DNA of 20,000 nucleotides from an uncultured virus (IMG/VR IMGVR_UViG_2061766007_002858) (taxonomy: Duplodnaviria; Heunggongvirae; Uroviricota; Caudoviricetes), in the IMG/VR virus record IMGVR_UViG_2061766007_002858; one strand, given 5' to 3'. Both the position numbers and the translations under genes were made by a program. The notes beneath the pieces were generated by a model. The model was not told the origin of the DNA, ran no database searches, and worked only from the letters and a program-made list of their open reading frames with translations. Shown piece after piece: positions 1 through 17,662 of this stretch. Every line of letters begins with the position of its first letter. Position 1 is the first letter of the stretch.

Positions 1-795
1 TGGAATTCAGCGACCGCTCAGACAGTAAAGAGGTCGAGGCGGTGCTTGAGGCGCTTGGCGCGGTAGGTTTCGAGGGCATCGGCGAAACGGCCGAGGCTCC
101 GGAAGANNNNNNNNNNNNNNNNNNNNNNNNAGCCCCAGGAAGGCGGGAGCGCCGAAGAAAACACTAAAGGCGAAGAGAGCCGCGACACCGTTGAGTTGAC
201 GGTCACCCTGCCGATGGCGAGGCACACGGGCATGAGCCTGCGCAACCTCATCAACCTGCTTTACACCCGCGCGGGACTGCTCAACAGGGCGCTGGGAACA
301 GCCTTCCGTGTAGACGAAGGGCTGGTCAAAGCCCTGCAGGACGATGCCAGCGTGCTTACGCTGGACCGCTTCTTTGAGACGGTGGAGGCTTACGAAAACA
401 GGCACGGCAAGGCGGCGGACGGGCTGGTCATCGAGCCGGACAGGCTGACCTTCAGCACACTGCCGGAGACGGATGACCCCGCTGTTCTGCGCGCCTTCAC
501 CACCCTCTGCGCCATGATGAACAAGCAGGCTATTACACAGCAGCGCATCCAGGCGAAGACAGCCGACGCCGAGAACGAAAAGTATGCCATGCGTATCTGG
601 CTTCTGCGCCTGGGCATGAACGGTCCCGAGTACAAAGAGGAGCGCAGGATCCTGATGCGGAAACTTTCCGGCCACTGCGCCTTCCGCACCGATGATGACA
701 GGCTGCGCTGGCAGGCGAAGCAGAACGAGAAGCGCGACGCCCTGAGGGCCGCAAAGCAGATCGTGGAGGTGAGCAGCGATGCGGATGCCGAGTAA
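1..795 (+). CDS. Phage 'virulence-related protein'-like conserved hypothetical protein, 5'-truncated, N gap at 107-130
   Basis: Open frame before the gap (EFSDRSDSKEVEAVLEALGAVGF) and after it. C-terminal ENEKYAMRIWLLRLGMNGPEYKEERRILMRKLSGHCAF resembles the ENEKYAFRCFLLRLG motif of this Firmicutes prophage family (recalled, not searched). Confidence 0.7.
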
Positions 796-1006
796 GGAAA
801 CCGTCGAAGCCCTCCGCAGGGCGTACCCCGTTGGCTGCACCGTGGAGCTGGTGCAGATGGACGACCCGCAGGCACCGCCGCCCGGCACCCTCGGAAAGGT
901 GGTGGCGGTGGATGACATCGCCACGATTCACGTCGCCTGGAGCAACGGCTCCGGGCTGGGAATCGCCTTCGGACAGGACAGATGCAGGAGGGTCGACCAT
1001 GACTGA
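779..1006 (+). CDS. DUF4314 family protein
   Basis: 75 aa; YPVGCTVELVQMDDPQAPPPGTLGKVVAVDDIATIHVAWSNGSGLG is the typical DUF4314 pattern; GGAGGTG Shine-Dalgarno (SD) upstream. Confidence 0.85.
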   Translation: MRMPSKETVEALRRAYPVGCTVELVQMDDPQAPPPGTLGKVVAVDDIATIHVAWSNGSGLGIAFGQDRCRRVDHD

Positions 1007-1196
1007 GAAAGTGCGTGATCAGATCCTCGCCATCCGCGACACTGGCCTCACGAACATGTTTGACCTGCACATGGTGCAGCGGCTGGCATACGAGCGTGGA
1101 TACTACGAGCTGGTCTGCTGGCTGGAGGAGCACAGGAAGGAATACGCGCGCTTCATCATGACGGGCGAAGCGGAACAGGAGGACGGCAATGGCTGA
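999..1196 (+). CDS. DUF5049 family protein
   Basis: 65 aa MTEKVRDQILAIRDTGLTNMFD...EYARFIMTGE. ATG at 999 follows AGGAGG and overlaps the previous gene end; the ORF track start at 831 is too far upstream. Confidence 0.85.
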   Translation: MTEKVRDQILAIRDTGLTNMFDLHMVQRLAYERGYYELVCWLEEHRKEYARFIMTGEAEQEDGNG

Positions 1197-1593
1197 AGAG
1201 ATCAGAGTGCTGCTTGTAGAGCCAGGCAAACAGCCCAGGCTTGTGACGGTGGAACATACGCTGGAAAACATGCAGGCGCTGGTTGGTGGCTACATCGAGG
1301 CCGTCTACCCCTGGGACGACCCAGTCGGCGTCATTTGCGACGAGGACGGTATCGCCAACGGGAAGGAGCCTAACCGGCTGCTGGCGGACGAGGACGGCAA
1401 CCCCTACGATGTTCTCAAAGGCACGTTCTTCATCTGCGGCCTGGGCGGAGAGGACTTCTGCAGCATCAGCGACGAGATGGCTGAGAAGTACACTGTGCGT
1501 TTCCGCTGGCCGGAGATGTTCGCCCGCACCCCGGACGGGCATGTCCTATGGATGAGGCTGGAACCCGGCGCGAAGCCCGGAATCATCTGTTGA
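1189..1593 (+). CDS. DUF3846 family protein
   Basis: 134 aa; VLLVEPGKQP...LENMQALVGGYIEAVYPWDDPVGVICDEDG...PNR...GTFFICG pattern; AGGAGG SD. Confidence 0.8.
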   Translation: MAEEIRVLLVEPGKQPRLVTVEHTLENMQALVGGYIEAVYPWDDPVGVICDEDGIANGKEPNRLLADEDGNPYDVLKGTFFICGLGGEDFCSISDEMAEKYTVRFRWPEMFARTPDGHVLWMRLEPGAKPGIIC

Positions 1594-1608
1594 AAAACGT
1601 CCGGGTTT

Positions 1609-1708
1609 GTTATCAGAAATGTATCAATATACCGGCCTCACATGCGTGGACTTATGCCCCGAAAGACGGTAATGTACGTACTGCCGAAGGGCACACAGAC
1701 CACCGAAA
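1609..1708 (+). promoter_or_regulatory. Cassette-head repeat copy 1 with sigma70-like promoter
   Basis: TATCAAT at 1622; TGGACT (1647-1652)-N17-TAATGT (1670-1675); GTACGTAC palindrome; TGCC-GAAG-GGCA mini-hairpin. Near-identical copies at about 2543 and 3631. Confidence 0.75.
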
Positions 1709-1727
1709 AAGCAAGGAGGCAGCCGCC

Positions 1728-2164
1728 ATGAAGAGAGCCGAGCGCAACGAATTCAACTACATCAGGAGATACGNNNNNNNNNNAAGATACGAAAAGCAGT
1801 TTGACCTGGGGTACGGAACGACCCTGACCATCCGCACGGATGGGAGCCCCGAATACAAGCATGCCCTGCACGACCTTTACACCGGCTGGGGNNNNNNNNN
1901 NAAAAGCAGTTTGACCTGGGTTACGGAACGACCCTGACCATCCGAACGGACGGGAGCCCCGAATACAAGCATGCCCTGCACGACCTTTACACCGGCTGGG
2001 GATTCCACCCTGCCAGCGTCCGGGTGGACAGGAGCATGTACGACGATAAGGAGCGCATCATTTACATCTACGGGCTGACCTTCGACCTGCGCGGCGAGGA
2101 GCATCCCTGGACAGAGCTTTACACCGCCGAGGAGAGGGCACGCTTTGAAGCGGCCCTCGGCTGA
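1728..2164 (+). CDS. Hypothetical protein, cassette 1 gene A (about 102 aa once the overlapping contigs are collapsed)
   Basis: AAGGAGG SD then ATG 1728. Reconstructed across gaps 1774-1783 and 1892-1901: MKRAERNEFNYIRRYEKQFDLGYGTTLTIRTDGSPEYKHALHDLYTGWGFHPASVRVDRSMYDDKERIIYIYGLTFDLRGEEHPWTELYTAEERARFEAALG, TGA 2162-2164. Not called intact by the ORF track. Confidence 0.75.
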
Positions 2165-2179
2165 AGGGAGGGCGCCGAA

Positions 2180-2458
2180 ATGACGATCGCTGAGATCAAC
2201 ATCGCCTGCGCGCTGAACCACATCGAGACGCTCCGCAGGCATGGAGCCCAGGTGACGGGCCCAGACGGGCAGCGCGTCGAGCTGAACAGCTTCTTCTGGG
2301 GCAAGGCGATGGACGCCTGCATGCTGGGCGACTGCAGCGCCATCTGCTACGACCTTTTCCTGCCGGGGATTGAGGAACCGCTGCTCATCGCCATCCACCG
2401 CGACGGCAGGGTTGATTCCGGCAGCGCGGAAAACGTGATGCGATGCCTCGACCATTGA
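2180..2458 (+). CDS. Hypothetical protein, cassette 1 gene B (92 aa)
   Basis: GGGAGG SD, GC-rich third positions, followed by a hairpin. Confidence 0.75.
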   Translation: MTIAEINIACALNHIETLRRHGAQVTGPDGQRVELNSFFWGKAMDACMLGDCSAICYDLFLPGIEEPLLIAIHRDGRVDSGSAENVMRCLDH

Positions 2459-2472
2459 CGGAACCAGGCAGC

Positions 2473-2516
2473 GGATAGAGGAAACGGGCTGGGCGACCGG
2501 CCCCTTTTCTCTGTCC
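2473..2516 (+). terminator. Probable intrinsic terminator, possibly bidirectional
   Basis: GGGCTGG-GCGA-CCGGCCC core hairpin followed by CTTTTCTCT. Outer arms GGATAGAGGAAA / TTTTCTCTGTCC also pair, with G-U. Confidence 0.65.
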
Positions 2517-2529
2517 ACCGCATGAAAGA

Positions 2530-2629
2530 GTTATCTGTTTTGTATCAATATATCTGCCTCACAGGCGTGGACTTATCCCTCAAAAGACGGTAATGTACGT
2601 ACTGCAAGGAGCGAAGAAAAGCCTTGCGG
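2530..2629 (+). promoter_or_regulatory. Cassette-head repeat copy 2 with sigma70-like promoter
   Basis: TATCAAT at 2543; TGGACT (2568-2573)-N17-TAATGT (2591-2596); GTACGTAC; leader hairpin CTGCAAGG...CCTTGCGG. Confidence 0.75.
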
Positions 2630-2657
2630 CACAAGGATTTTGAAGGAGGAAACCACG

Positions 2658-2930
2658 ATGACGATTGAAAAGGCCATGAGAACCTACCGCCTGCCGAACC
2701 CCACCACCCCGGAAGACCTCGCCTGCGGATGGAGCAAGACGCTGACCTTTGGCGACAGGATTCTGGTCGCCGGCCATTACTACCAGCACAACAGGCCCTG
2801 CTACTACGGCGCGGTGTACGAGTTCCTGAGCGACGACCACACCTGCGAGGGCGCCATCGGGCTGGTGGCGGCAAGCGAGGTGGAATTCGAGGACGACGGC
2901 CACGCGATTGCTTGGGCGATGGCGCAGTAA
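2658..2930 (+). CDS. Hypothetical protein, cassette 2 gene A (90 aa)
   Basis: AAGGAGG SD then ATG 2658: MTIEKAMRTYRLPNPTTPEDL...FEDDGHAIAWAMAQ. Confidence 0.8.
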   Translation: MTIEKAMRTYRLPNPTTPEDLACGWSKTLTFGDRILVAGHYYQHNRPCYYGAVYEFLSDDHTCEGAIGLVAASEVEFEDDGHAIAWAMAQ

Positions 2931-2943
2931 GGAGGGCAAAACG

Positions 2944-3615
2944 ATGCTGAGCAGAGGAAACGCGGTTTTTGAGGAAATGCAACGCGTCGGGCACGAATGG
3001 GAAAAGGCCCGCGAGGAGCGCAGGCGGCGCAANNNNNNNNNNACGGTTTTTGAGGAAATGCAGCGCGTCGGGCACGAATGGGAAAAGGCCCGCGAGGAGC
3101 GCAGGCGGCGCAAGCAGGAGATCATCGACACGAAGGGCTGGGAAAGCGAAGAGCTGAAAGCCTGNNNNNNNNNNTACCGCATCGGCCACGACTGGGAAAA
3201 AGCCCGCGAGGAGCGCAGACAGCGCAAACAGGAGATCATCGACACGAAGGGCTGGGACAGCGAAGAGCTGAAAGCCTGGTACGTCGAGGACGAGGCGGCG
3301 AAGTTCCCCTTCAGCCATGGAGCCAACAAGGCATACCGCGCCTGGGCGTCCAGCGTCGGCCGCCGGGAGGACGAGGTGGAAATGGACGATTTCCTCTGGG
3401 ACAGGGAGGTTTCCGATTTTGTGGATACCCTGCGCAGAGCCGGATTTGCCACCTTCGTTTATACCAACCAGTCTACGGCGGTGATGGAGAACCTCCACCG
3501 GTTCGCCGCGGAGGGCTGCAGGATGGAAGGGCTTTGCACTGTCACCCGCCGCGAGAACCGCTGGGGCGAAGAGGAGCCTGTCGAGGTCATGGGCATACGA
3601 TTTTCCCTGGGATGA
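2944..3615 (+). CDS. Hypothetical protein, cassette 2 gene B, tentatively DUF7698-like; N-terminal part repeated in variant contigs
   Basis: TAAGGAGG SD, ATG 2944. C-terminal DDFLWDREVSDFVDTLRRAGFATFVYTNQSTAVMENLHRFAAEGCRMEGL resembles DUF7698 proteins as recalled. The apparent internal repeat coincides with N gaps 3033-3042 and 3165-3174. Confidence 0.65.
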   Translation: MLSRGNAVFEEMQRVGHEWEKAREERRRRXXXXTVFEEMQRVGHEWEKAREERRRRKQEIIDTKGWESEELKAXXXXYRIGHDWEKAREERRQRKQEIIDTKGWDSEELKAWYVEDEAAKFPFSHGANKAYRAWASSVGRREDEVEMDDFLWDREVSDFVDTLRRAGFATFVYTNQSTAVMENLHRFAAEGCRMEGLCTVTRRENRWGEEEPVEVMGIRFSLG

Positions 3616-3628
3616 AATGACACACATA

Positions 3629-3717
3629 GTTATCAATTTATATCGCGCACAGGCGTGGACTTATCCCTCAAAAGACGGTAATGTACGTACTGCCGAAGGG
3701 CAAAGAACACACCGAAA
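3629..3717 (+). promoter_or_regulatory. Cassette-head repeat copy 3 with sigma70-like promoter
   Basis: TATCAAT at 3631; TGGACT (3656-3661)-N17-TAATGT (3679-3684); GTACGTAC; TGCC-GAAG-GGCA; CACCGAAA at the same offset as in copy 1. Confidence 0.75.
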
Positions 3718-3732
3718 GCGAGGAACAAAACC

Positions 3733-4056
3733 ATGATGAACGCCTACTCCCTGAGAAACCACTTCACCCTGGGCAACTACAACACCACGATCACCCGCGC
3801 CGAATTCGAGCGCAGCTTCACGAAAACGAAGGAGAGCGTGACATTCACCTTCATGGGCTGGGACGGCAAGAGCTACGACGGCGAAAGCCGCAAGGCGCGG
3901 GTCCTGCGCAGCAACATTCCCGGCTACGAGAGTGTCCGCTTCATCAAGGTCGGCAAGAGCCTGCACTACATCATGGAAGATGAGCTGAGGGTGGAAAAGG
4001 CCACCGGCGAGAGCCATCCCGAAGCCAGCTGGCTGGTGGATGTTGAGAGAGCCTGA
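3733..4056 (+). CDS. Hypothetical protein, cassette 3 gene A (107 aa)
   Basis: GAGGA SD, strong GC3 bias, directly downstream of repeat copy 3. Confidence 0.8.
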   Translation: MMNAYSLRNHFTLGNYNTTITRAEFERSFTKTKESVTFTFMGWDGKSYDGESRKARVLRSNIPGYESVRFIKVGKSLHYIMEDELRVEKATGESHPEASWLVDVERA

Positions 4057-4071
4057 CAGGAGGAAAACGCC

Positions 4072-4413
4072 ATGAAGTTTGCGAGAGATGACGTTCAGAC
4101 TACATACTGCGGTGAAGACCCCATCGACAGGAACGACCCGGAAGGCGCGAAGACCGCCATCGAGCTGACGCTGCCCACCGGCTTTTCCGAAAAGGCGTGG
4201 GCCTGCTGGGATTACTTTGACGGCACCGCCTTCCTGTACGAATACAAGGGCCGCCTGGTGGTGACGGACGAGAGCCTTTACCTGACCGTCCACGGCGACG
4301 GCACGATGGACGCGCCGCTGGGATTCCCGCGCTGGGAATGTTATTCCTGGGAGGAGCTGGAGAAAATCCTGGAAACCACCTACGACGAGTTGGCTGAAGA
4401 AGATCTGATCTGA
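4072..4413 (+). CDS. Hypothetical acidic protein, cassette 3 gene B (113 aa)
   Basis: AGGAGG SD; about 26 D/E versus 9 K/R by hand count; aromatic-rich. Confidence 0.8.
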   Translation: MKFARDDVQTTYCGEDPIDRNDPEGAKTAIELTLPTGFSEKAWACWDYFDGTAFLYEYKGRLVVTDESLYLTVHGDGTMDAPLGFPRWECYSWEELEKILETTYDELAEEDLI

Positions 4414-4472
4414 TCCCCGTGTAAACAGCATATTGCCGGGAGCAGCCCAAGGAGGGCTGTATCTCGTACTGA

Positions 4473-4497
4473 AAGACCGCGAAGGTCTTATTTTTTT
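4473..4497 (+). terminator. Intrinsic terminator closing the cassette array
   Basis: AAGACC-GCGAA-GGTCTT followed by ATTTTTTT. A second hairpin (CAGCCC-AAGGA-GGGCTG, extended 4437-4466) lies just upstream. Confidence 0.75.
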
Positions 4498-4516
4498 GCC
4501 CGAGGAGGTGAGAAAC

Positions 4517-5745
4517 ACGAAAAAGCTGAAACGCTACAAGCCTACGGCCTTCAAGGCGAAAGACAGCCATTACGACAAGGCCGCCGCGGATTTCGCCGTG
4601 GCTTTCATTGAAAACTTGTGCCACACCAAGGGTACCTGGGCGGGAAAGCCATTCCTTCTGCTGGACTGGCAGGAACAGATCATACGGGATCTGTTCGGCA
4701 TTCTGAAGCCCAATGGATATCGGCAGTTCAACACCGCCTATGTGGAGATCCCGAAGAAGAACGGAAAGAGCGAGCTGGCTGCGGCCATTGCTCTTTTGCT
4801 TTGCTGCGGTGACGGCGAAGAGCGCGCCGAGGTCTACGGCTGCGCCGCCGACCGTCAGCAGGCCAGCATCGTGTTCGAGGTGGCCGCCGACATGGTGCGG
4901 ATGTGTCCGGCGCTCAGCAAGCGCGTGAAGATNNNNNNNNNNNNNNNNNNNNNNNNNNNNNNNNNNNNNNNNNNNNNNNNNNNNNNNNNNNNNNNNNNNN
5001 NNNNNNNNNNNNNNNNNNNNNNNNNNNNNNNNNNNNNNNNNNNNNNNNNNNNNNNNNNNNNNNNNNNNNNNNNNNNNNNNNNNNNNNNNNNNNNNNNNNN
5101 NNNNNNNNNNNNNNNNNNNNNNNNNNNNNNNNNNNNNNNNNNNNNNNNNNNNNNNNNNNNNNNNNNNNNNNNNNNNNNNNNNNNNNNNNNNNNNNNNNNN
5201 NNNNNNNNNNNNNNNNNNNNNNNNNNNNNNNNNNNNNNNNNNNNNNNNNNNNNNNNNNNNNNNNNNNNNNNNNNNNNNNNNNNNNNNNNNNNNNCCAGGG
5301 ACACCTCATGACGACCGAGGGCAATGTGATCCATTACGGGTTTATAGAACAGTTTATCGGCAGGCTGGGCGAGCGGTTCAACATCCGCGATATCGCCTTT
5401 GACCGCTGGGGCGCTGTCCAGATGGTGCAGAACCTGGAGGGCATGGGCTTCACCGTGGTTCCCTTCGGGCAGGGCTTTAAGGATATGTCCCCGCCAACGA
5501 AAGAACTGATGAAGCTGGTGCTGGAGAAGCGGATCGCACATGGAGGTCACCCGGTACTGCGCTGGATGATGGACAACATCTATATCCGTACCGATCCTGC
5601 TGGAAATATCAAGGCGGACAAGGAAAAGAGCACCGAAAAGATAGACGGCGCGGTAGCCACTATCATGGGCCTGGACCGCGCCATCCGCTGCGGGAATGAT
5701 ACACAGGAAAGCGTGTATAACGAACGCGGCATTCTGTTTCTATGA
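4517..5745 (+). CDS. terL: Terminase large subunit (middle missing in N gap 4933-5294; start uncertain, ACG 4517 or GTG 4508)
   Basis: Adenine-binding PFLLLDWQEQII, Walker A EIPKKNGKSEL, GCAADRQQASIVF, and nuclease-domain IAFDRWGA...KSTEKIDGAVATIMG. Confidence 0.95.
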
Positions 5746-5784
5746 CGGAGGGATGATTCATGGGAAAACTGTCGNNNNNNNNNN

Positions 5785-6070
5785 CCCCTTCGGGCAAGGT
5801 TTTAAGGACATGTCCCCGCCCACGAAAGAGCTGATGAAGCTGGTGCTGGAGAAGCGGATCGCTCACGGCGGGCATCCGGTGCTGCGGTGGATGATGGACA
5901 ACATATACATCCGCACCGATCCCGCCGGGAACATCAAGGCTGATAAAGAGAAATCCACGGAGAAAATCGACGGCGCGGTGGCCACTATCATGGGCCTGGA
6001 CCGCGCCATCCGCTGCGGGAATGATACGCAGGAAAGCGTGTATAACGACCGCGGCATTCTGTTTTTATAA
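5785..6070 (+). CDS. terL: Variant copy of the terL 3' end (overlapping strain-variant contig)
   Basis: Same protein sequence (PFGQGFKD...RGILFL) with mostly synonymous differences; flanked by 10-N gaps; a further short copy lies at 6130-6178. Confidence 0.85.
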
Positions 6071-6192
6071 CGGAGGGATGATTCATGGGAAAACTGTCGA
6101 GCCTGTTTCATATCAGGGANNNNNNNNNNCGATACAAAGGAAAGCGTGTACAACGACCGCGGCATTTTGTTTTTATGACGGAGGGATGATTC

Positions 6193-8159
6193 ATGGGAAA
6201 ACTGTCGAGCCTGTTTCACATAAGGGATAAGCCTCAGAACCGCACAGTCGGCAGCGGCTATGCCTTCTACATGGGCGGCACCACATCCGGCAAAGTTGTG
6301 ACGGAGCGCTCCGCCATGCAGATGACGGCGGTGTATTCCTGCGTGCGAATCCTTGCTGAGGCTGTCGCGGGATTGCCGCTGCACCTGTACCGGTACCGCG
6401 ATGACGGCGGGAAGGAAAAGNNNNNNNNNNTGGCAGCGGCTATGCCTTCTACATGGGCGGCACCACATCAGGCAAGGTCGTGACGGAACGCTCCGCCATG
6501 CAGATGACAGCGGTGTATTCCTGCGTACGGATTCTGGCTGAAGCTATCGCGGGATTACCGCTGCACCTGTACCGGTACCGTGATGACGGAGGTAAGGAGA
6601 AAGCCATCGACCATCCACTGTACCTGCTGCTGCATGACGAGCCGAATCCGGAGATGAGTTCATTCGTCTTCCGTGAGACGCTCATGACGCACCTGCTCCT
6701 ATGGGGCAACGCCTATGCGCAAATCATACGCAACGGCAAAGGCGAAGTGGTGGCGCTGTATCCCCTGATGCCCAACAANNNNNNNNNNTTCGTCTTCCGG
6801 GAGACGCTTATGACGCACCTGCTTCTGTGGGGTAACGCCTACGCGCAGATCATCCGAAATGGCAAAGGCGAGGTAGTGGCGCTGTATCCCCTGATGCCCA
6901 ACAAAATGTCGGTGGATCGTGATGCGGACGGCCGCTTGTACTACACCTATCAGCGGTCCAGCGAGGAAGCGCCCATCGCGGAAGGCTCAAAGGTCATCCT
7001 GTCGCCAAAGGATGTGCTGCACATCCCCGGCCTGGGCTTTGACGGGCTTGTGGGCTACAGCCCCATTGCCATGGCGAAAAACGCCATCGGCCTGGCCATC
7101 GCTACGGAGGAGTACGGCTCCAAGTTCTTCGCCAACGGCGCTACACCCAGCGGCATCCTGGAATATCCGGGGACGGTAAAGGATCCGGAGAAGGTCAGGG
7201 ACAGCTGGACGCGGGGCTTTTCCGGCAGCGGCAACGCGCATAAGGTGGCTGTGCTTGAGGAGGGCATGAAATACACGCCCATCTCCATTTCCCCGGAGCA
7301 GGCGCAGTTCCTGGAGACCAGGAAGTTTCAGATCAACGAAATCGCCCGTATTTTCCGGGTGCCGCCCCACATGGTGGGCGACCTGGACAAATCGAGCTTC
7401 TCCAATATCGAGCAGCAGTCGCTGGAATTCGTGAAATACACCCTCGATCCNNNNNNNNNNAGGCATGAAGTACACGCCCATCTCTATCGCCCCGGAGCAG
7501 GCGCAGTTCCTGGAAACAAGAAAATTTCAGATCAACGAGATCGCCCGCATCTTCCGGGTGCCGCCGCACATGGTTGGCGACCTGGACAAATCGAGCTTTT
7601 CCAATATCGAGCAGCAGTCGCTGGAATTCGTGAAATACACCCTTGATCCATGGGTTGTGCGCTGGGAGCAGTCCATCCAGCGCACACTTCTGCAGGACGA
7701 GGAGAAGACACGGTATTTTGTGAAGTTCAACCTGGAAGGCCTGCTGCGCGGCGATTACCAGAGCCGCATGAACGGATACGCCNNNNNNNNNNATGGGTGG
7801 TGCGCTGGGAACAGTCCATTCAGCGCACGCTCCTGCAGGATGAGGAGAAGGCGCGGTATTTCGTGAAATTCAACCTGGAAGGCCTGCTGCGCGGCGATTA
7901 CCAGAGCCGCATGAACGGGTACGCCACGGCGAGGCAGAACGGATGGATGTCGGCCAACGACATCCGGGAACTGGAGAACCTCGACCGCATCCCGCCCGAG
8001 AGCGGAGGCGACCTGTATCTTATCAACGGCAACATGCTCCCGCTCAACAGGGCGGGCGCTTTTGCGAATACGACGGAAAAGGAGGACACCGATTCTGATG
8101 AAAGCACAGAAGAAGTTCTGGCGGTGGAAGAATCAGGCGGACGGAGAAGAGGCCGCTGA
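6193..8159 (+). CDS. Phage portal protein (HK97 family), composite of overlapping variant contigs
   Basis: SAMQMTAVYSCVRILAE, LLLWGNAYAQIIRN, VLHIPGLGFDGLVGYSPI, QFLETRKFQINEIARIFRVPPHMVGDL, GWMSANDIRELENL. Partial start copies at 5760 and 6085. Confidence 0.95.
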
Positions 8160-8926
8160 GCGCGTACTGGAGCTCTACGGCACCATCGCCGAGGAAAGCT
8201 GGTTCGACGACGATATCACCCCGGCGCAGTTCCGTGACGAGCTGTTTTCCGGCACGGGAGACGTCGTCATCTGGCTGAACTCGCCCGGCGGGGACTGCGT
8301 GGCCGCCAGCCAGATATATGCCATGCTTATGGATTACCCCGGTAATGTGACCGTGAAGATCGACGGCATCGCCGCGTCGGCGGCGTCTGTCATCGCCATG
8401 GCGGGCACTACCGTTCTCATGGCACCGACGGCCATGATGATGATTCACAATCCGGCCACGATTGCCATGGGCGACCATGAGGATATGCGCAAGGCCATCG
8501 AGATGCTGGACGAAGTGAAGGAAAGCATCATCAACGCCTATGAGATTAGAACCGGACTCAGCCGGGCGAAAATCTCCCACATGATGGATGCCACCACATG
8601 GATGAACGCCAACAAAGCCATCGAACTGGGCTTTGTGGATGATATCCTGACGGACGAAAAGCTGAACACCGATATGCCGGCTTTCGCTTTTTCNNNNNNN
8701 NNNTCTGACGGACGAAAAGCTGAACACCGATATACCGGCTTTCGCTTTTTCGGACAGCGCTGTGGAGCGGACGCTCATCAACAAGCTGACGGCTAAGGCT
8801 ATGCCGGTTGATCCGGAAAAAATGCATGCGCCGGTTCAGCCCAAACCGGAAGAACCCACCATTCCCCAGGGGCGGCGCGTCGACGATCTCAAAGCCCGCC
8901 TCATGACCATCAAAAACTATATGTGA
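8098..8926 (+). CDS. ClpP-type (S14) prohead maturation protease
   Basis: WLNSPGGD, IDGIAASAASVIAMAG (catalytic Ser), MMIHNP (His), TWMNANKAIELGFVD. Continues after gap 8694-8703 to ...DDLKARLMTIKNYM TGA 8924-8926. Confidence 0.92.
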
Positions 8927-8935
8927 CAGGAGGAA

Positions 8936-9438
8936 TTGTCTATGACCATCGTTGAAATNNNNNNNNNNTGGACAATCCGAGGGAATCACATGAGCCAGTC
9001 ACGCCGAAAACGGAAACACAGGTTCCGGAAGAAATCACTATTCCCCAGGGGCGGCGCGTTGANNNNNNNNNNAGAAAAAACGCCTGTGCCGGTTCAGCCA
9101 GTACCGGAAGAATCCACCATTCCCCAGGGACGGCGCGTTGATGATCTCAAAGCCCGTCTCATGACCATCAAAAACTATATGTGACAGGAGGAATTGTCTA
9201 TGAACATCGTTGAAATGCGCGAAAAGCGCGCTAAGCTCTGGGCCACCATGGAAGGCTTTCTGGACACCCATCGCAATGAAAANNNNNNNNNNGGGACAAT
9301 CCGAGGGAATCACCTGAGCCAGCCACGCCGAAAACAGAAACACAGGTTCCGGAAGAAATCACTATTCCCCAGGGGCGGCGCGTTGACGATCTCAAAGCCC
9401 GTCTCATGACTATCAAAAACTATATGTGACAGGAGGAA
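8936..9438 (+). repeat. Stacked variant contigs of the protease 3' end / capsid 5' end junction
   Basis: Repeated TIPQGRRV(DDLKARLMTIKNYM) and M(T/N)IVEM segments separated by 10-N gaps. Confidence 0.85.
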
Positions 9439-9444
9439 ATGTCT

Positions 9445-10478
9445 ATGACCATCGTTGAAATGCGCGAGAAGCGCGCCAGGCTCTGGGCCACCATGGAAGG
9501 CTTTCTGGACACCCATCGCAATGAAAAGGGCGTACTGTCCGCCGAGGATGATGCCACCTATGCTTCCATGGAAACCGATCTGGACGCCCTGACCAATGAG
9601 ATCCACCGCATGGAGCGCCGCGACGCCAGGGAGGCTGAACTGTCCAAGCCCATGAACAAGCCTCTGACTGAAAAGCCGGAGAAGAACACCGAGCCTGAAA
9701 AGACCGGTCGCGCTTCCAATGCCTATCGTGAGGATTTCGGCAGGCATCTGAGGGGCAAGACGCCCATCCNNNNNNNNNNTGCCCTGACCAACGAGATCCA
9801 CCGCATGGAGCGCCGCGACGCCAGGGAGGCTGAGCTTTCCAAGCCCATGAACAAACCTCTGACTGAAAAGCCGGAGAAGAACGCCGAGCCTGAAAAGATC
9901 GGTCGCGCTTCCAGTGCCTATCGTGAGGATTTCGGCAGGCATCTGAGGGGCAAGACGCCCATCCNNNNNNNNNNGCGCGAAAAGCGCGCCAAGCTCTGGG
10001 CCACCATGGAAGGCTTTCTGGATACCCATCGCAATGAAAAGGGCGTGCTGTCCGCCGAGGATGACGCCACCTATGCTTCCATGGAGACCGATCTGGACGC
10101 CATGACCAACGAGATCCACCGCATGGAGCGGCGCGATGCCCGGGAGGCCGAGCTGTCCAAGCCCATGAACAAGCCCCTGACCGAAAAACCGGAGAAGAAC
10201 GCCGAGCCTGAAAAGGCCGGCCGCGCTTCCAACGCTTACCGCGAGGATTTCGGCAGGCATCTGAGGGGCAAGACGCCCATCCACAACGTACTGTCCGAAA
10301 GCACCGATGCGGACGGCGGCTACCTGGTACCCACCGAGTTTGAGCATCAGATCGTGACGGAGCTGGAAGAGAGCAATATCATCCGCTCCATCGCCAAGGT
10401 CATCACCACGCATCATGACCGGAAGATCCCCATCGCCGTGGGCCATTCCGTGGCCACCTGGACGGCTGAGAACGCGGC
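9445..10478 (+). CDS. Major capsid protein (HK97 family), N-terminal part; composite of three overlapping variant contigs
   Basis: Coiled-coil delta-domain-like N-terminus, then NVLSESTDADGGYLVPTEFEHQIVTELEESNIIRSIAKVITT. AGGAGG is 8 nt before ATG 9445, while ATG 9439 is too close to the SD and is TTG in other copies. Confidence 0.92.
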
Positions 10479-10488
10479 NNNNNNNNNN

Positions 10489-11265
10489 CGTGCTTTTCCA
10501 GAACACAGACTCGCTCATGTTCAGCACTACAGTCCCCACGTAATACAGCAGCACCCAGTCCACAGATTCCTGCGCGCCGGATGCTGCCGTATCAAATGAG
10601 TCCCACAGCGCCTTTACCGAGGGTCTGGGGCCACGGCATTCTCCGTATCTCCGGTATCCTCAGGCAGCGCGGCAGTCAGCGCCTCGGTGATCTGCTCCAT
10701 GATCTTTTCCACATTGGTCAGGGAGATCATCGCGCCTACCTGGCGCTCGGTCAGTTTTTCGTCTTCATGCAAAAGGCCCGCCCACAGCAGCGTTCGGGTG
10801 GCTTTCACGGAGCCCTGCTGCATCTTCTGGAACGCCTGGTCCAGGGAGCCGAATTTGTCCTCCAGCTCCGCAAAGGCGTTCAGGTCGAAGAGCAGCGTGC
10901 GGGGCTTGTCCAGTTCAATGGGAATACGCACTTCCCGGATGTCATGCAGCGCCATAGTTTAGCCCTCCCCATTGGTCTCTTTGGTTTCTTCGTAGACCTC
11001 GTTGAACCAGCTGTCCACGCCNNNNNNNNNNATCTTAACCCTCCCCGTTGGTCTCTTTGGTTTCTTCGTAGACCTCGTTGAACCAGCTGTCCACGCCGGT
11101 GAATTCCGGGTCGCTGGTGTCGGCAGAGATCTGCCAGTTGCCGTCATAGTCGCGCTGGACAAAAGTGCCGGTCAGCTTGGGCTGACGCCAGGCGGGCGAA
11201 TCGTTACTGGTAGAGTATTCATCCTCGACCAGCTGGAACTTGCCCTTGTACAGCCACACGCAGCG
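10489..11265 (-). other. Inverted block of variant contigs: major tail protein 3' end, tail chaperone and downstream ORF
   Basis: Reverse-complement homolog of about 14293-15175, bounded by 10-N gaps and interrupting the capsid gene. Confidence 0.85.
10614..10955 (-). CDS. Tail assembly chaperone (variant copy)
   Basis: 113 aa, differing from 14710-15051 at two residues. Confidence 0.8.
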   Translation of the reverse strand: MALHDIREVRIPIELDKPRTLLFDLNAFAELEDKFGSLDQAFQKMQQGSVKATRTLLWAGLLHEDEKLTERQVGAMISLTNVEKIMEQITEALTAALPEDTGDTENAVAPDPR

Positions 11266-11275
11266 NNNNNNNNNN

Positions 11276-11646
11276 ACGCGCTCAAGTCTCCCTATCGCAG
11301 GAACGCGAAGTTCCTGATGAACGACGCGACGGTGTCCGCTATCCGCAAGTTGAAGGACGGCAACGGCGTGTACCTGTGGCAGCCTGCCCTGCAAGCGGGT
11401 CAGCCTGACAAGCTGCTGGGCTTCGACCTGGTGACGTCTCCTTATGCGCCGACCATGGCTGCCGGCGCGCTGCCCATCGCCTTTGGTGATTTCAACAATT
11501 ACTGGATCGGCGACCGCATGGGTCGCACGGTGCAGCGCCTGAATGAACTGTATGCCACCAACGGCCAGATCGGCTTTGTGGCCACCGAGCGCGTGGACGG
11601 CAAGGTGATCCTGCCCGAGGGCATCCAGCTGCTCCAGATGAAGTGA
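11276..11646 (+). CDS. Major capsid protein, C-terminal part
   Basis: ALKSPYRRNAKFLMNDATVSAIRKLKDGNGVYLWQP...IAFGDFNNYWIGDR...GQIGFVATERVDGKVILPEGIQLLQMK. Confidence 0.93.
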
Positions 11647-11659
11647 GGAGGGCGCGGCT

Positions 11660-11911
11660 ATGAGCTATAACGTGAAGAACTACACCGAGCAGGGCGGCGA
11701 CGTCACCCATATCGGCGGAAAGCTGGTGTTTGAAGAGGGAGCCTCTGTAGAGGGGCTCCCTGGCTCTACTCCTGCAGAGAACCAGGCTGCCAGCACAGCT
11801 GCTACCGTTGCTGCCCTGAAGGATGATTTCAATGCGCTGCTGGCAAAGCTGAAGGAAGCCGGCCTTATGGCTGCTGACACTACTGCGGACGAAGATGCCG
11901 ATGGCGAATAA
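11660..11911 (+). CDS. Head fibre / capsid decoration-like protein
   Basis: 83 aa MSYNVKNYTEQGG...STAATVAALKDDFNALLAKLKEAGLM; position right after the capsid gene. Confidence 0.7.
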   Translation: MSYNVKNYTEQGGDVTHIGGKLVFEEGASVEGLPGSTPAENQAASTAATVAALKDDFNALLAKLKEAGLMAADTTADEDADGE

Positions 11912-11929
11912 CGGGAGGGAGGCTGTCGA

Positions 11930-12253
11930 ATGGCGCTGATTACACTGGCTGAGGCCAAGGAGTACCTGAGGGTGGACACCGATGCCGATGACGCGCTGAT
12001 CGGCAGTCTCCTTCTCTCCGCCGGAAGGCTGTGCGCCGATGTGGCGCGGCTGAACGATGAGGAATGGGCGGCGGTGGATGCTGACGCGACTGCAGATGAC
12101 AGCCCCGGGGTGATTTCACTACGGGCTTCGCTGCGCGTGGCGGTGTATTTCACGCTGGCGTACCTGTATGAGCACCGGGAGGAAGCAGATCATCATGGTC
12201 TGCTGCTCACGCTGCGTTCTCTGCTTTTCGCTGTCAGGGAGGGACGTCCGTGA
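11930..12253 (+). CDS. Head-tail connector (HK97 gp6-like)
   Basis: ITLAEAKEYLRVD...DDALIGSLL...AYLYEHRE motif; variant 3' copy at 12454-12639. Confidence 0.88.
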   Translation: MALITLAEAKEYLRVDTDADDALIGSLLLSAGRLCADVARLNDEEWAAVDADATADDSPGVISLRASLRVAVYFTLAYLYEHREEADHHGLLLTLRSLLFAVREGRP

Positions 12254-12443
12254 AGAAGAATCCGCTTTACCCCAGCAGGCTGAGAAATCGTGTGGAATTC
12301 CTGCGGCGTGTCGTGACCGTAGAGCATGGTATCAGCAAGGAACGCTGGGAAACAGCTTTTATCTGCTGGTGCGGAGCAGAGCCGCTGTCAGGTAGAGAGT
12401 TCTGGGAGGCAGCGGCCATCAATCGGGAAAACGAGGTGCGCTT
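12250..12443 (+). CDS. Head closure protein, partial variant copy
   Basis: GTG start overlapping the previous stop; LRNRVEF...EPLSGREFWEAAAINRENEVR, cut by an N gap. Confidence 0.75.
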
Positions 12444-12635
12444 NNNNNNNNNNAATGCGGTGGACGCTGAACCTGCCGCAGATGACAGTGCAGCGGTGAT
12501 TTCTCTCCGGGCATCTCTGCGCGTGGCGATGTATTTCACGCTGGCATACCTGTATGAGCACCGGGAGGAAGCGGACCATCACGCCCTGCTTCTTACTCTC
12601 CGATCTTTGCTCTTTTCCGTCAGGGAGGGACGCCC

Positions 12636-13059
12636 GTGAAGAAGAATCCGCTGTATCCCAGCAGACTGCGCAGCCGCGCCGAATTCCTGCGCCGCACTGT
12701 CAGTATGGAGCATGGCATCAGTCGGGAACGCTGGGAAACCACCTTCACATGCTGGTGCTGCGTGGAACCGCTGTCAGGCAGAGAGTTCTGGGAGGCAGCG
12801 GCCATCAATCGGGAAAACGAGGTGCGCTTCACCATCCGCTACCGGAAGGACGTATCCGCCGAGATGCGGATCAGGCTGGACAGCACAGTGTACGACATCA
12901 CCTCTATCCTCGATAAAAACAACCGGCATGAGGCGCTNNNNNNNNNNACTGGATGGTACGGTGTACGACATCACCTCTATCCTCGATAAAAACAACCGGC
13001 ATGAGGCGCTGGAGATACTGGCAAGGACGGTGACGCCAGATGGCAAATGTCAGAATTGA
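12636..13059 (+). CDS. Head closure / head-tail adaptor (SPP1 gp16-like), composite
   Basis: EPLSGREFWEAAAINRENEVRFTIRYRKDVSAEMRIRLDSTVYDITSI; finishes after gap 12938-12947. Confidence 0.85.
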
Positions 13060-13450
13060 CGGGCTGAAAGACCTGGGGACCCGTGTGAAGAACATGGGCA
13101 AAGAGGCGCGCGGCGCTGCCGGACAAGCGCTCCGCAAGGGCGCGGAGATCATCAAAGAAGAAGCCCATGTCCGGGCTCCCCGCAGCGCCCACGGGCATCC
13201 CGCCACCCAGGGACGTACAGCCAAGCATCTGGCGGATCAGCTGACCACCAGCGTCTCCGCCAGCAAATACACCGCAGGCGTGACCGTCGTCGGTGGTGTG
13301 AATGGTCCAAGCTATTACTGGAAATACCTCGAGTACGGCACAAAGCGCATAAAAGAACGCGCCTTTATCCGCGAAAGCGCGGAGGCGCGCGGTGATGAAG
13401 CTATGGAGACCGTGAAGCGCGAGATAGAAGCCCGGCTGGGCATCAAGTGA
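13040..13450 (+). CDS. HK97 gp10 family neck/tail component
   Basis: VRIDGLKDL...ALRKGAEIIKEEA..RAP...YYWKYLEYGTKRIKERAFIRES. Confidence 0.88.
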   Translation: MANVRIDGLKDLGTRVKNMGKEARGAAGQALRKGAEIIKEEAHVRAPRSAHGHPATQGRTAKHLADQLTTSVSASKYTAGVTVVGGVNGPSYYWKYLEYGTKRIKERAFIRESAEARGDEAMETVKREIEARLGIK

Positions 13451-13461
13451 GGTGATCACCA

Positions 13462-13912
13462 TTGGACGCATCGACCCTGGTGGACGAGCTGTTGGAAAGC
13501 GAAGAGCTGACAGCGCTCCTGGCCACCGACCCATACGGCAATCCCGCCATCTATCAGATCCTTTCCCCAGAGGCGGAGGTATTTCCCCGGCTGGCTGTGT
13601 TTGAATCGGATCGCGAGTANNNNNNNNNNGGAGGCGGAGGTCTTTCCCAGACTGGCCGTGTTTGAAGCGGATCGTGAATACACCCGCTTCGCCGATGACC
13701 AGCCGCTGGAAGAAGAGATCACCTTCCGCATCGACATCTACGCCCGGGAAAATCTGCTGTATCCCATCAACGCCGCTTTGCACAAAACCATGCGCCGGAA
13801 CGGCTATCAGCGGTACGGACAGGTGCAGGACGATTATCTGCAGGATATGGACATCTACGTGAAATCCGCCACCTATACCATCAAAGAACAGCTCCCGTTT
13901 CCCTGGGAGTGA
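13462..13912 (+). CDS. Probable tail terminator / tail completion protein, composite
   Basis: GAGGTGA SD, TTG start; FPRLAVFE...FADDQPLEEEITFRIDIY; located between gp10 and the major tail gene. Confidence 0.7.
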
Positions 13913-13927
13913 GAGAGGAGAATTGAT

Positions 13928-14706
13928 ATGCCTCAGAATACCACTGTCAAGGCGCAGCGGCAGTCGCTGCGCAATATCCACTACGCCCTGCTGACCAGCG
14001 ATACCACGGAGGGAGTGACCTACGCCAAGCCTGAGCCGCTGGTTGGCGCGATCTCCGCCAGCATTTCGCCTACCACCAATCAGGAAAAGCTGTGGGCGGA
14101 TGACGGCGTATTCGACATCGCCTCCCAGCTGGGCGATATCACCCTTGAGCTGGAGCTGGCGGCGCTTCCCATGAAGGCGCAGGCGGTCCTGCTGGGCCAT
14201 AAGTACGAAAAGGGCGTCATGGTGCAGAACGCCAGCGACGAAGCGCCCTATGTGGCCATTGGCTTCATGAGCCAGCCTCAGCCGAACCAGTTCCGCTGCG
14301 TATGGCTGTACAAGGGCAAGTTCCAGCTGGTCGAGGATGAATATTCCACCAGCAATGATTCTCCCGCCTGGCGTCAGCCCAAGCTGACCGGTACCTTCGT
14401 CCAGCGCGACTANNNNNNNNNNTGACATCACCCTGGAGCTGGAGCTGGCGGCGCTTCCCATGAAGGCGCAGGCAATCCTGCTGGGCCATAAGTACGAAAA
14501 GGGCGTNNNNNNNNNNGTATTCCACCAGCAACGATTCTCCCGCCTGGCGTCAGCCCAAGCTGACCGGCACCTTTGTGCAGCGCGACTACGACGGCAACTG
14601 GCAGATTTCCGCCGATACCAGCGATCCGGAATTCACCGGCGTGGACAGCTGGTTCAACGATGTCTATGAGGAACCCAAAGAGACCAACACCAACGAGGAG
14701 GGCTAA
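13928..14706 (+). CDS. Major tail protein (phi13-like family), composite
   Basis: SLRNIHYALLTSDT..GVTYAKP, LWADDGV, APYVAIGF, VWLYKGKF, LTGTFVQRD; TAA 14704-14706. Confidence 0.9.
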
Positions 14707-14709
14707 GCC

Positions 14710-15051
14710 ATGGCGCTGCATGATATCCGGGAAGTGCGTATTCCCATTGAACTGGACAAGCCCCGCACGCTGCTTTTCGACCTGAACGCCTTTGCAGAGC
14801 TGGAGGACAAATTCGGCTCCCTGGACCAGGCGTTCCAGAAGATGCAGCAGGGCTCCGTGAAAGCCACCCGCACGCTGCTGTGGGCGGGCCTTTTGCATGA
14901 AGATGAAAACCTGACCGAGCGCCAGGTCGGCGCGATGATCTCCCTGACAAACGTGGAAAAGATCATGGAGCAGATTACTGAGGCTCTGACCGCTGCGCTG
15001 CCGGAAGACACCGGCGACACGGAGAAAGCTGTGGCTCCCGACCCTCGGTAA
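14710..15051 (+). CDS. Tail assembly chaperone (lambda gpG position)
   Basis: 113 aa, IELDKPRTLLFDLNAFAELEDKFG...LLWAGLLHEDENLTERQVG; sits between the major tail and tape measure genes. Confidence 0.82.
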   Translation: MALHDIREVRIPIELDKPRTLLFDLNAFAELEDKFGSLDQAFQKMQQGSVKATRTLLWAGLLHEDENLTERQVGAMISLTNVEKIMEQITEALTAALPEDTGDTEKAVAPDPR

Positions 15052-15245
15052 AGGCGCTGTGGGACTCGTTTGATACAGCAGCATCCGGCGCGCAGGAATC
15101 TGTGGACTGGGTGCTGCTGTATTACGTGGGGACCGTAGTGCTGAACATGAGTGAAGCTGTATTTTGGAAAAGCACCCTGCGGAAACTGCACGCGGTCTTC
15201 AAATGCCATTGTGAGCATATGCCGAAACCTGATCGAAAGAAATGA
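15042..15245 (+). CDS. gpT-like ORF in the -1 frame, probable frameshift extension of the chaperone
   Basis: PSVKALWDSFDTAASGAQESVDWVLLYYVGTVVLNMSEAVFWKSTLRKLHAVFKCHCEHMPKPDRKK, TGA 15243-15245. The L(N/G)MS...FW..T pattern is typical of gpT-like segments. Not in the ORF track. Confidence 0.72.
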   Translation, partial: PSVKALWDSFDTAASGAQESVDWVLLYYVGTVVLNMSEAVFWKSTLRKLHAVFKCHCEHMPKPDRKK

Positions 15246-15263
15246 CGAAGGAGGTGATTTCCC

Positions 15264-16000: not shown

Positions 16001-16010
16001 NNNNNNNNNN

Positions 16011-17340: not shown

Positions 17341-17354
17341 GAATCATCCCTCCG

Positions 17355-17561: not shown

Positions 17562-17571
17562 NNNNNNNNNN

Positions 17572-17662
17572 ATCTGTGTTCTGGAAAAGCACCCTGCGAA
17601 AGCTGCATGCGGTATTCAAATGCCACTGTGAGCATATGCCGAAGGCTGGTGGAAAGAAATAA
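17572..17662 (+). CDS. 3' end of the gpT-like ORF, variant copy
   Basis: SVFWKSTLRKLHAVFKCHCEHMPKAGGKK, TAA 17660-17662. Confidence 0.75.

Follow-up and report, generated by a model that had tools for sequence, protein, structure and literature searches.

A repeated promoter-like module heads exchangeable accessory-gene units upstream of terL in a Heliusvirales-like phage

The window analyzed here is the whole 20,000-nucleotide stretch of the uncultured virus record IMGVR_UViG_2061766007_002858 (Caudoviricetes), and the element in question is a non-coding module of about 100 nucleotides (nt) that occurs three times upstream of terL (R1, R2, and R3, Table 1), each copy being followed by two small genes (A1 and A2, B1 and B2, C1 and C2). 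Related modules lie in one orientation and with one internal spacing throughout a family of metagenomic phage loci, are conserved in excess of the genes flanking them, and head units that are reshuffled among relatives. The geometry and the comparison of relatives suggest that these are probably sigma-70-type promoter-leader modules heading autonomous accessory-gene units and acting as joints for homologous recombination.

The module in the window

A repeat search of the window returns one family with three copies, at 1622-1708, 2543-2629, and 3631-3717, all of which share the layout TATCAAT-N18-TGGACT-N17-TAATGT and contain the 23-nt core AAAGACGGTAATGTACGTACTGC without a mismatch. No fourth core site is present in the 20-kb window with up to three mismatches allowed, and in 200 dinucleotide-preserving shuffles the mean core count is 0.00, with none of the shuffles holding three matches. 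The distance from TAATGT to the start codon is 52, 61, and 48 nt for R1, R2, and R3. An earlier, sequence-only reading of this DNA had described such a repeat with fixed geometry and an invariant core, two mutually unrelated small open reading frames behind each copy, and terminator hairpins behind units 1 and 3, and its description holds: the cores lie where it placed them, the reading frames have GGAGG-type ribosome-binding sites, the six proteins form six BLASTP clusters, and a terminator scan finds hairpins with T-runs behind unit 1 (2486-2503) and unit 3 (4473-4489) and none behind unit 2.

In the proposed working of the module an AT-rich upstream stretch would be followed by a promoter of the sigma-70 family (TGGACT, a 17-nt spacer, and TAATGT), then by a short leader, often opening with a small stem-loop, and by a ribosome-binding site whose distance from the ATG is constant. 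The holoenzyme recognizing it is predicted to be of the sigma-70 type, with RNA polymerase starting about 7 nt past TAATGT, and the one or two accessory genes behind each module would be transcribed as an autonomous unit, in some cases with a terminator at its end. Given their length and similarity, module copies within one genome, or in co-infecting or resident relatives, could undergo homologous recombination, which would delete, insert, reorder, or replace units and homogenize the modules themselves, and the crossovers would be expected to fall at the modules rather than merely nearby.

The module family and the reshuffling of its units

Profiles were built from module copies, and loci were found by pattern scans of viral contigs and then dereplicated. 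The first set gives 93 profile matches in 38 dereplicated loci, every one on the seed strand and 42 without the exact pattern searched for; at least two copies are present in 29 of the 38 loci, the maximum is six (one locus), and the median spacing is 951 nt. The second set is larger, with matches in 148 of its 170 loci; none of the 148 is hit on both strands. Two core types are distinguished, the form found in the window (t1, GCGTGGACTT-N11-GACGGTAAT) and a second form (t2, ...CTTGCTAT-N8-TTTAGAGTGATATATACAC), which the nearest viral record, termed G001, uses at positions equivalent to those of t1 in the window. With overlapping or near-identical loci of the second set collapsed into 87 dereplicated clusters, 73 have matches (59 t2 only, 10 t1 only, and 4 mixed) and 14 have none. 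As a control on spacing, loci were fetched with wrongly spaced motifs, and none of these 72 loci (478 kb) contains a profile match; stretches with a single match number 13 and 59 with the wrong spacing and 86 and at least 131 with the right one. The start codon lies 30-61 nt past the -10 hexamer in 79 of 88 copies and more than 150 nt past it in the remaining 9, at least one of which (the first copy of G003, a relative of the window) precedes a gene missed by the crude gene caller. Directly behind the copies stand 15 gene families, all of them DUF families or without a Pfam family, 5 being found behind both core types, and the identity between modules is 0.70 within a locus, 0.60 between loci ahead of the same gene family, and 0.48 overall.

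Three whole phage records have profile matches only between the methyltransferases and terL (3, 3, and 4 copies, together with two matches at E ~0.09). A scan covering one genome per prokaryote species places t1 in eight contigs of metagenome-assembled genomes, labeled Lachnospiraceae (four), Oscillospiraceae, Blautia, Clostridia, and, for one contig of 2.6 kb, Bacteroidales. A blastn search with the 110-nt module gives no match in 50,697 GenBank phage records or 72,556 plasmid records, and two phages of the NatCom group give only weak t2-like profile matches. Modules are also found beside lysis genes, in L038, L072, L075, and L077 (t1) and in L048 and L054 (t2), where a holin/SH3 gene is followed by the module, a 124-amino acid gene, and a 744-amino acid protein with an endolysin-like domain, or where the module follows holin and endolysin at the end of the contig.

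In the alignment of the copies a first conserved block (TGGACT or TTGCTA) is followed at a distance of 17 nt by a second one (TAAT(A/G)T or GATATA). The spacers between the blocks are variable, and the blocks are flanked by an AT-rich stretch on the 5' side and a purine-rich leader with GGAGG on the 3' side. Judged by inspection of the alignment and not by a statistic, GTTATCAGAAATGTATCAATATA and its counterparts are AT-rich within a region of ~60% G+C. Hybrids that combine the -35 half of t1 with the -10 half of t2 are present in three loci (L073, 2289-2389; L196, 369-438; L207, 4665-4760), each with a 17-nt spacer, and such independent assortment of the -35 and -10 blocks at a fixed spacing is as expected of separately recognized elements. 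In a further locus (L202, 286-390), the array of which also has pure copies, a module half is joined to a plain TTGACT with the 17-nt spacer kept. Over the stretch from -35 to +9, identity between the window and G003 is 100, 90, and 92% at R1, R2, and R3, and that between the window and a second relative, G002, is 100 and 90% at R1 and R2; five of six orthologous comparisons thus lie at 90-100%, and the neighboring coding sequence at 65-79%. The spacer between ribosome-binding site and ATG, …GGAG[GA]NACACCACCATGA…, is common to unrelated genes and to both core types (L036, 1229-1337; L029, 5173-5281; the G001 copies), indicating that the conserved module reaches the start codon and that the exchangeable part starts at the ATG.

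The exchangeable cassettes proposed by the sequence-only reading are borne out by related phages, in which the same genes occur in other orders and combinations with modules at the joints. With a slash between units, the window and G003 have A1A2 / B1B2 / C1C2; G001 has B1B2 / A1 / C1 + DUF7678 and is without DUF3846, A2, and C2; and G002 has A1A2 / B1B2 / D1 + C2, D1 being a new 93-amino acid gene. The remaining orders are C2-like / A1A2 / B2 / D1 + a 68-amino acid gene / B1 in L029, B2 / C1 / B1 in L030, DUF6900 + A2-like / B2 / D1 ... / B1 / terS terL in L036, B2 / C2 / B1 in L049, and B1B2 / C1C2 in L057 and L062. B1 and B2 each stand behind a module of their own in several phages, and the gene pairs are therefore not fixed. 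Between the window and G002 homology stops at 3682, within the core, and restarts at 4070, at the start of C2, and the third module of G002 is the -10-proximal and leader variant that goes with D1 elsewhere. Between the window and G001 the homology of the units spans the ribosome-binding site to the stop codon and the module ahead is of the other type, and G003 differs from the window in that units B and C have traded their long and short leader hairpins, the genes being orthologous. These unit orders and module identities fit recombination and gene conversion among copies as the presumed mechanism. In RNA library X16 a single contig links position 2157 directly to 3649, the match on one side of the joint being only 25 letters long, at 90% likeness. 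It is given no weight; at most it hints weakly at a relative (90-95% identity) in which A1 leads straight into a t1 module and C1, with A2, B1, and B2 missing.

Several observations weigh against the modules being promoters and recombination joints. A simple sigma-70 consensus scan flags none of the three window copies and no G001 copy, the agreement with the 12 consensus positions being 7 for TGGACT/TAATGT and 8 for the commoner form with TAATAT. Three near-identical contigs from RNA libraries cover 2327-2481, 3391-3648, and 3719-3898 (segments of A2, B2, and C1) and break off at the shared core, as is to be expected from any assembler. They could also stem from DNA carry-over and are uninformative on starts, strand, and level. 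Stem-loops at -4 kcal/mol or below are found in 39 of 78 unique leaders (50%; a parallel count gives 40 of 80), compared with 18% of their own shuffles and 52% of random local 30-mers. Because the loci were collected via the motif, the searched bases are conserved in part through the design of the search; related loci are moreover non-independent, and the gene calls in the loci are crude, being the longest open reading frames filtered by G+C content at third codon positions. The breakpoint comparison covers a handful of genome pairs, in which a breakpoint within the core is a single case (the window and G002), and the homology limits seen with G001 show exchange of units and leave the crossover sites unlocated. 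Finally, the six genes of one relative, G003, follow the window's order throughout, the constancy that the sequence-only reading had named as speaking against exchange; the order is not kept in G001, G002, L029, L030, L036, L049, L057/L062, or L073.

Competing explanations of the module

The alternative that survives best, although it is judged unlikely, takes the module as a promoter or operator for a dedicated trans-acting factor (an alternative sigma factor of phage or host, an activator, or a repressor), so that the array would be one regulon switched all together and the core types specificity alleles. Such a factor would account for the poor match of the canonical hexamers and for conservation that extends beyond them, to AGGCG ahead of -35 and to GACGG or TTTAGAG ahead of -10. 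It would also account for the near-purity of the arrays, mixed profile types occurring in none of the 38 loci of the first set and in 4 of the 73 clusters with matches of the second, but local homogenization by recombination explains type purity without a factor, and the hybrids lie in the same arrays as pure t1 copies (L073, L196, and L207), which means that a single genome can use, or can at any rate maintain, both halves. A strict mutual exclusion of core types was considered and is rejected because of the 4 mixed or hybrid clusters in the larger scan. The t2 copies of G001 retain the far-upstream TTATCAAT stretch of the window's lineage, and the cores look replaced in place. In a tree of the N-terminal part of TerL the closest neighbor of the window (t1) is G001 (t2), the two being 100% identical across 91 columns, and the type label makes 3-4 changes, no fewer than with shuffled labels, but only 3 branches of this tree are well supported.

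A candidate for the factor itself is a putative late regulator encoded upstream of HNH and terS, nearly identical in G001 and G002 (168 amino acids, with an identical C-terminal helix-turn-helix stretch and weak similarity to sigma-70 region 4) and replaced in G003 by a DUF1492 protein. The core type does not follow it, since G001 (t2) and G002 (t1) share it and G003 (t1) has another; as determinant of the core type the phage late regulator is accordingly rejected on the near-same protein in G001 and G002. The modules also head unrelated genes in other contexts (holin/SH3 and endolysin-like), which fits a portable promoter read by the host, and such a host-read promoter with local homogenization by recombination is favored over a dedicated factor. 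In the fullest version of the factor hypothesis, which is slightly less probable again, the modules would be sites at which the factor switches on the whole array, for example immediately upon DNA entry or in the lysogen, and the rapidly changing cargo (DUF7698, Nmad4, DUF3846, DUF7678, DUF6900, and four family-less proteins, beside methyltransferases and an S-adenosylmethionine (SAM)-synthetase-like gene) would be a counter-defense arsenal. If this were true, the near-purity of type would reflect the matching of module and factor, and the module would be a standard plug-in expression adaptor of an abundant group of gut and rumen phages.

It is improbable that the conserved part acts chiefly as an RNA 5' leader (a stabilizer, an attenuator, or a protein-binding site) and not as a promoter. 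Leader types are exchanged between units, and half of the leaders have a small hairpin of variable sequence at the predicted transcript start, beginning 2-6 nt past it and taking the forms TGCC-GAAG-GGCA, CCGC-N7-GCGG, GCAAGG-N12-CCTTGC, or CGG..GGGC-N-GCCC..CCG by subtype. In view of the role of 5' stem-loop structures in Firmicutes mRNAs, this stem-loop is a candidate 5' stabilizing structure. The hairpin is, however, missing in the other half of the leaders, ~20 leaders are only ~31 nt long, its stability is not above that of random local 30-mers, and the best-conserved block lies 5' of it and has -35/-10 geometry. A search of Rfam 15 at E up to 1 gives no match across the region, the only match in the window being an unrelated small nucleolar RNA model at 12035-12087 (E 0.2). 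A leader would moreover still require a promoter, and no other is apparent in the units that follow a terminator.

That the array is an assembly artifact, in which alternative strain alleles of one site were joined serially, is very improbable, even though the scaffold invites the suspicion. The window is a gapped, strain-collapsed metagenomic scaffold with many runs of N, duplicate flanks of 88-97% identity, and long inverted duplications. The statement in the sequence-only reading that the copies lie inside continuous sequence is not borne out, as N gaps and artifactual duplications are present between them. The gaps lie at 1774-1783 and 1892-1901 in A1 and at 3033-3042 and 3165-3174 in B2, with near-duplicate flanks, and the joints 1773>1902 and 3026>3222 are present in contigs from two independent public DNA runs; contigs that skip in this way mark the duplications inside A1 and B2 as scaffold artifacts. 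A1 is intact as 102 amino acids in G001-G003, and the relatives of B2 are 158-amino acid forms. With the duplications removed the start-to-start spacing is ~793 and ~893 nt (921 and 1088 in the window as assembled), so that of the earlier description the serial units stand and their size of 0.9-1.1 kb does not, the true values being ~0.79 and ~0.89 kb.

The public contigs end within a 44-nt stretch common to R2 and R3, no record of this sample spans a copy, and none spans two copies. With the contig breaks inside the shared core, the A-B-C order of the window is taken from collinearity with G002 and G003 and not from a spanning read. These two viral contigs, assembled independently, hold three copies in matching gene order and, once the duplications are removed, at matching spacings (793/883 nt in G002 and 792/879 nt in G003); up to six copies are present on other contigs, and contigs of two DNA runs connect every window copy with a flank, left or right, that is unique to it. 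The matching order and spacings, the longer arrays, and the unique flanks argue against serial joining of alleles. The runs containing window sequence are bovine-gut, pig-gut, and digester metagenomes.

The remainder of the scaffold has features of its own. Window 5461-19000 is crowded with direct and inverted duplications of 88-95% beside N gaps (for example 5461-5760/5786-6085; 9462-10274; inverted 6855-7387/16476-17008 and 10490-10976/14689-15175), and head and tail gene parts of at least two strain variants are seemingly joined there in both orientations. Given these mixed-strain duplications, the gene order of the window is not trustworthy without other assemblies. In the duplicated coding sequence at 14996-18764 a 21-nt unit near CGCAGCTGGAAAACATCGGCG has six occurrences, including two adjacent pairs.

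A site-specific recombination target in an integron-like cassette system is as improbable as an assembly artifact. Cassettes of integrons carry no promoter, have attC at their end, and depend on the IntI tyrosine recombinase for their movement. The array resembles them as a co-oriented series of short exchangeable units bounded by a repeat, and G001 encodes two large serine recombinases, but their place at the prophage end, at a distance of 24 kb, is that usual for integrases, and the recombinases seen are of the serine type only. The repeat stands 5' of the units with promoter geometry, in place of a 3' attC, and is without imperfect inverted-repeat structure, and the breakpoints are scattered (core, ribosome-binding site, and stop codon). 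Least of all is the module a single-strand promoter or origin of the kind that plasmid leading regions, reportedly in work by Samuel and colleagues in 2024, carry as repeats heading anti-defense genes. That analogy, drawn by the sequence-only reading and otherwise prompted by small unassigned genes beside DNA methyltransferases, is effectively refuted for the feature tested, since the folding z-scores of the six single strands (-0.13, -1.41, -1.14, +0.24, -0.44, and -0.44) reveal no single-strand hairpin, the 72,556 plasmid records hold no match, and the carrier is a tailed phage with terminase and HNH genes.

Genomic context, cargo, and significance

The array occupies a variable region between a methyltransferase block and terL (Table 1). 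The order in G001 is regulator, HNH, terS (P27 type), SAM-synthetase-like, two N6/N4 methyltransferases, phrog_2443-like, DUF4314, DUF5049, the units, terL, and the head genes, with DNA polymerase A, an SNF2 helicase, VRR_NUC, DUF2800, and the two serine recombinases elsewhere in the genome. The full 310-amino acid phrog_2443-like gene of G001 is headed by a fourth copy of the repeat; the product of the partial gene in the window (196-795) has no Pfam match. The DUF3846 family, which is absent from G001, is the first gene behind 7 t1 copies in other phages. In G001-G003 the array follows HNH and terS and precedes terL, and the terS-terL gap there is ~6.5 kb (G001:C1:25674-34961; L016, L083). 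Located in this gap are the SAM-synthetase-like gene and the two DNA methyltransferases, the phrog_2443-like gene together with small DUF genes, and the module-headed units. No such gap separates terS from terL in other module-bearing phages (L036, L044, and L020), where the two genes are neighbors and the array precedes terS. The hairpin ahead of terL leaves no space for a promoter (window 4433-4520), suggesting that terL is read through the hairpin or that the hairpin has another role, for example as a packaging signal. The candidate start codon of terL is a GTG within the ribosome-binding site in the window and a TTG 7 nt past the ribosome-binding site in G002 and G003.

Table 1. Positions of the modules, their genes, and neighboring features in the window
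Feature	Position	Strand	Remarks
phrog_2443-like gene, 3' part	196-795	+	Matches only positions 253-428 of PHROG 2443 ('amidoligase enzyme'); label tentative for this part
DUF4314 protein gene	779-1006	+	PF14192, E 1.2e-28
DUF5049 protein gene	999-1196	+	PF16468, E 5.9e-33
DUF3846 protein gene	1189-1593	+	PF12957, E 4.5e-35
R1	1606-1712	+	TATCAAT 1622-1628; AT-rich 1609-1646; TGGACT 1647-1652; TAATGT 1670-1675; core 1662-1684; profile 76.4 bits
R1 hairpin TGCCGAAGGGCA	1682-1693	+	Predicted transcript 5' end
R1 ribosome-binding site GGAGG	before ATG at 1728	+	
A1 (unit 1, gene 1)	1728-2164	+	True length ~102 amino acids; 1774-1901 is a scaffold duplication; no Pfam or PHROG family
A2 (unit 1, gene 2)	2180-2458	+	92 amino acids; no Pfam or PHROG family; 13 relatives in fetched loci
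Terminator-like hairpin with T-rich tail, after unit 1	2486-2513	+	
R2	2529-2635	+	TATCAAT 2543-2549; TGGACT 2568-2573; TAATGT 2591-2596; core 2583-2605; profile 78.5 bits
R2 longer hairpin GCAAGG...CCTTGC	~2603-2628	+	Leader minimum free energy -11.0
B1 (unit 2, gene 1), Nmad4 domain protein	2658-2930	+	PF18756, E 2.4e-21; phrog_6231
B2 (unit 2, gene 2), DUF7698 protein	2944-3615	+	PF24753, E 5.1e-12; true length ~158 amino acids; 3027-3221 is a scaffold duplication
R3	3626-3723	+	TATCAAT 3631-3637; TGGACT 3656-3661; TAATGT 3679-3684; core 3671-3693; profile 86.2 bits
R3 hairpin TGCCGAAGGGCA	3691-3702	+	
C1 (unit 3, gene 1)	3733-4056	+	107 amino acids; no Pfam or PHROG family
C2 (unit 3, gene 2)	4072-4413	+	113 amino acids; no Pfam or PHROG family
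Terminator-like hairpin with seven-T run, after unit 3	4473-4496	+	Ends 20 nt 5' of the terL coding region; conserved in G001-G003
terL, 5' part	4517-4932	+	Cut by a long N gap; PF03354; phrog_9, E 4e-42

Among named records the closest in DNA sequence, at 69-80% identity over terL, are NatCom phages of human feces that are classed as Ca. Heliusvirales and have Oscillospiraceae, Acutalibacteraceae, and Ruminococcus as hosts. The carrier is probably a temperate, Heliusvirales-like phage of gut and rumen Clostridia. According to PMC11283538, which mentions 25,699 non-identical genomes, such phages are among the most widespread Clostridia phages of the human and animal gut, and the methyltransferase of Heliusvirales is interpreted as restriction protection. 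Literature retrieved under the phage group and the domain names contains no account of these repeats, the main text of PMC11283538, supplements apart, being without the word 'promoter'.

Proteins encoded in the units of the family belong to DUF7698, Nmad4, DUF3846, DUF7678, DUF6900, DUF4313, DUF6809, AIG2/GGACT-like, zinc-ribbon, and AAA_21 families, and several are family-less, among them A1, A2, C1, and C2. C1 has relatives in 606 clusters and A1 in 271, named at most 'hypothetical protein' (jgi), and in a protein atlas C2 leads to unnamed viral clusters only, at 0.77, and B2 to DUF7698 clusters. AlphaFold models of C1 and A1 have predicted local distance difference test scores of 87.0 and 90.8. 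The sequence-only reading had suggested anti-defense or host-takeover functions together with a Foldseek comparison, which, run with the A1 and C1 models against the PDB, returns no match at E ≤0.001 (best E 0.25); the best VIA-align Z is 3.9 for each model, within noise. Rows naming toxins or acetyltransferases in the structure lists of A1 and C1 are weak and are not taken as evidence. An anti-defense or host-takeover role of the cargo is neither supported nor excluded, adjacency to the methyltransferases being the only hint of counter-defense, and no function is claimed for it. In two loci (L025, 2719-3834, and L078) the module array contains a 372-394-amino acid AAA_21 ATPase with a partner of 178-208 amino acids, AAA_21 being the Pfam family named for AbiEii-type toxins, so arrays can carry larger genes of the defense-system type.

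Among known systems the closest in architecture is the PeSL (promoter-early stem-loop) of T4-type phages, an analogy that the sequence-only reading had drawn and that fits feature by feature, in architecture and in comparison though not by descent. As described by Arbiol et al. (2010; PMC2839356), a PeSL combines sigma-70-like boxes and an AT-rich stretch with a stem-loop and extends over the ribosome-binding site to the start of the gene that follows, and PeSLs lie in hyperplastic regions, ahead of ORFans, at the ends of differences between related phages; their cassettes are also treated by Comeau et al. (2014; PMC4122927). The module is likewise a repeated intergenic motif with an AT-rich stretch, -35/-10-like boxes (at 17-nt spacing in t1, t2, and the three hybrids), and a downstream ribosome-binding site and start codon. 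It too clusters in a variable region ahead of genes without known function, and it marks the ends of differences between relatives (window and G002 at 3682; swapped leaders). There is no sequence similarity between the two, and the carrier, with an HK97-type TerL, HNH, P27-type terS, and serine integrases, is a temperate siphovirus-type Clostridia phage and not a lytic T4-like myovirus, so the module would be PeSL-like in its working and not a PeSL by descent. It differs further in having 3-6 copies in one region, compared with ~50 per genome, in its hexamers, which match the consensus poorly where PeSL boxes are described as identical to it, in having two core types and hybrids, and in its stem-loop, which where present follows the -10, a terminator-like hairpin preceding only R2 in the window. 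For PeSL, promoter and terminator activity and mini-circles have been demonstrated experimentally; for the module, promoter activity is a prediction from sequence.

The units can also be set beside morons, and here they agree in part. They are small accessory genes with a promoter-like element of their own, some with a terminator, placed between genes that are adjacent elsewhere (terS and terL), and their presence varies among relatives. Morons, in the account attributed to Juhala, Hendrix and colleagues, are said to be autonomous promoter-gene-terminator units inserted between conserved genes. The present units form a serial array under one shared module, in place of single insertions with signals of their own; terminator-like sites stand behind window units 1 and 3 only and behind no G001 unit. 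Nor is their base composition atypical, the G+C fraction being 0.52-0.65 in the array and 0.53-0.65 in the flanks, with dips at the intergenic modules only. With plasmid leading regions the array shares small unassigned genes behind repeated promoter-like elements, beside functions of the anti-restriction type (here the DNA methyltransferases), but its carrier is a phage and not a plasmid.

The trading of accessory genes seen here is of a known kind, and what is new is the hybridization of -35 and -10 halves and the breadth of the family. If the modules work as proposed, they would extend modular shuffling at promoter repeats from T4-type phages to temperate phages of Gram-positive anaerobes and would add to it that the -35 and -10 halves themselves recombine. 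The module would provide a short DNA signature by which the variable slots for accessory genes could be recognized across thousands of metagenomic phage contigs, and the ~15 small families behind it, which have hundreds of clusters each and none with a function and which are exchanged as units, make good candidates for tests of host interaction and counter-defense. To our knowledge few genetic parts exist for GC-rich gut Clostridia, and for these bacteria the module may serve as a compact candidate promoter-leader part.

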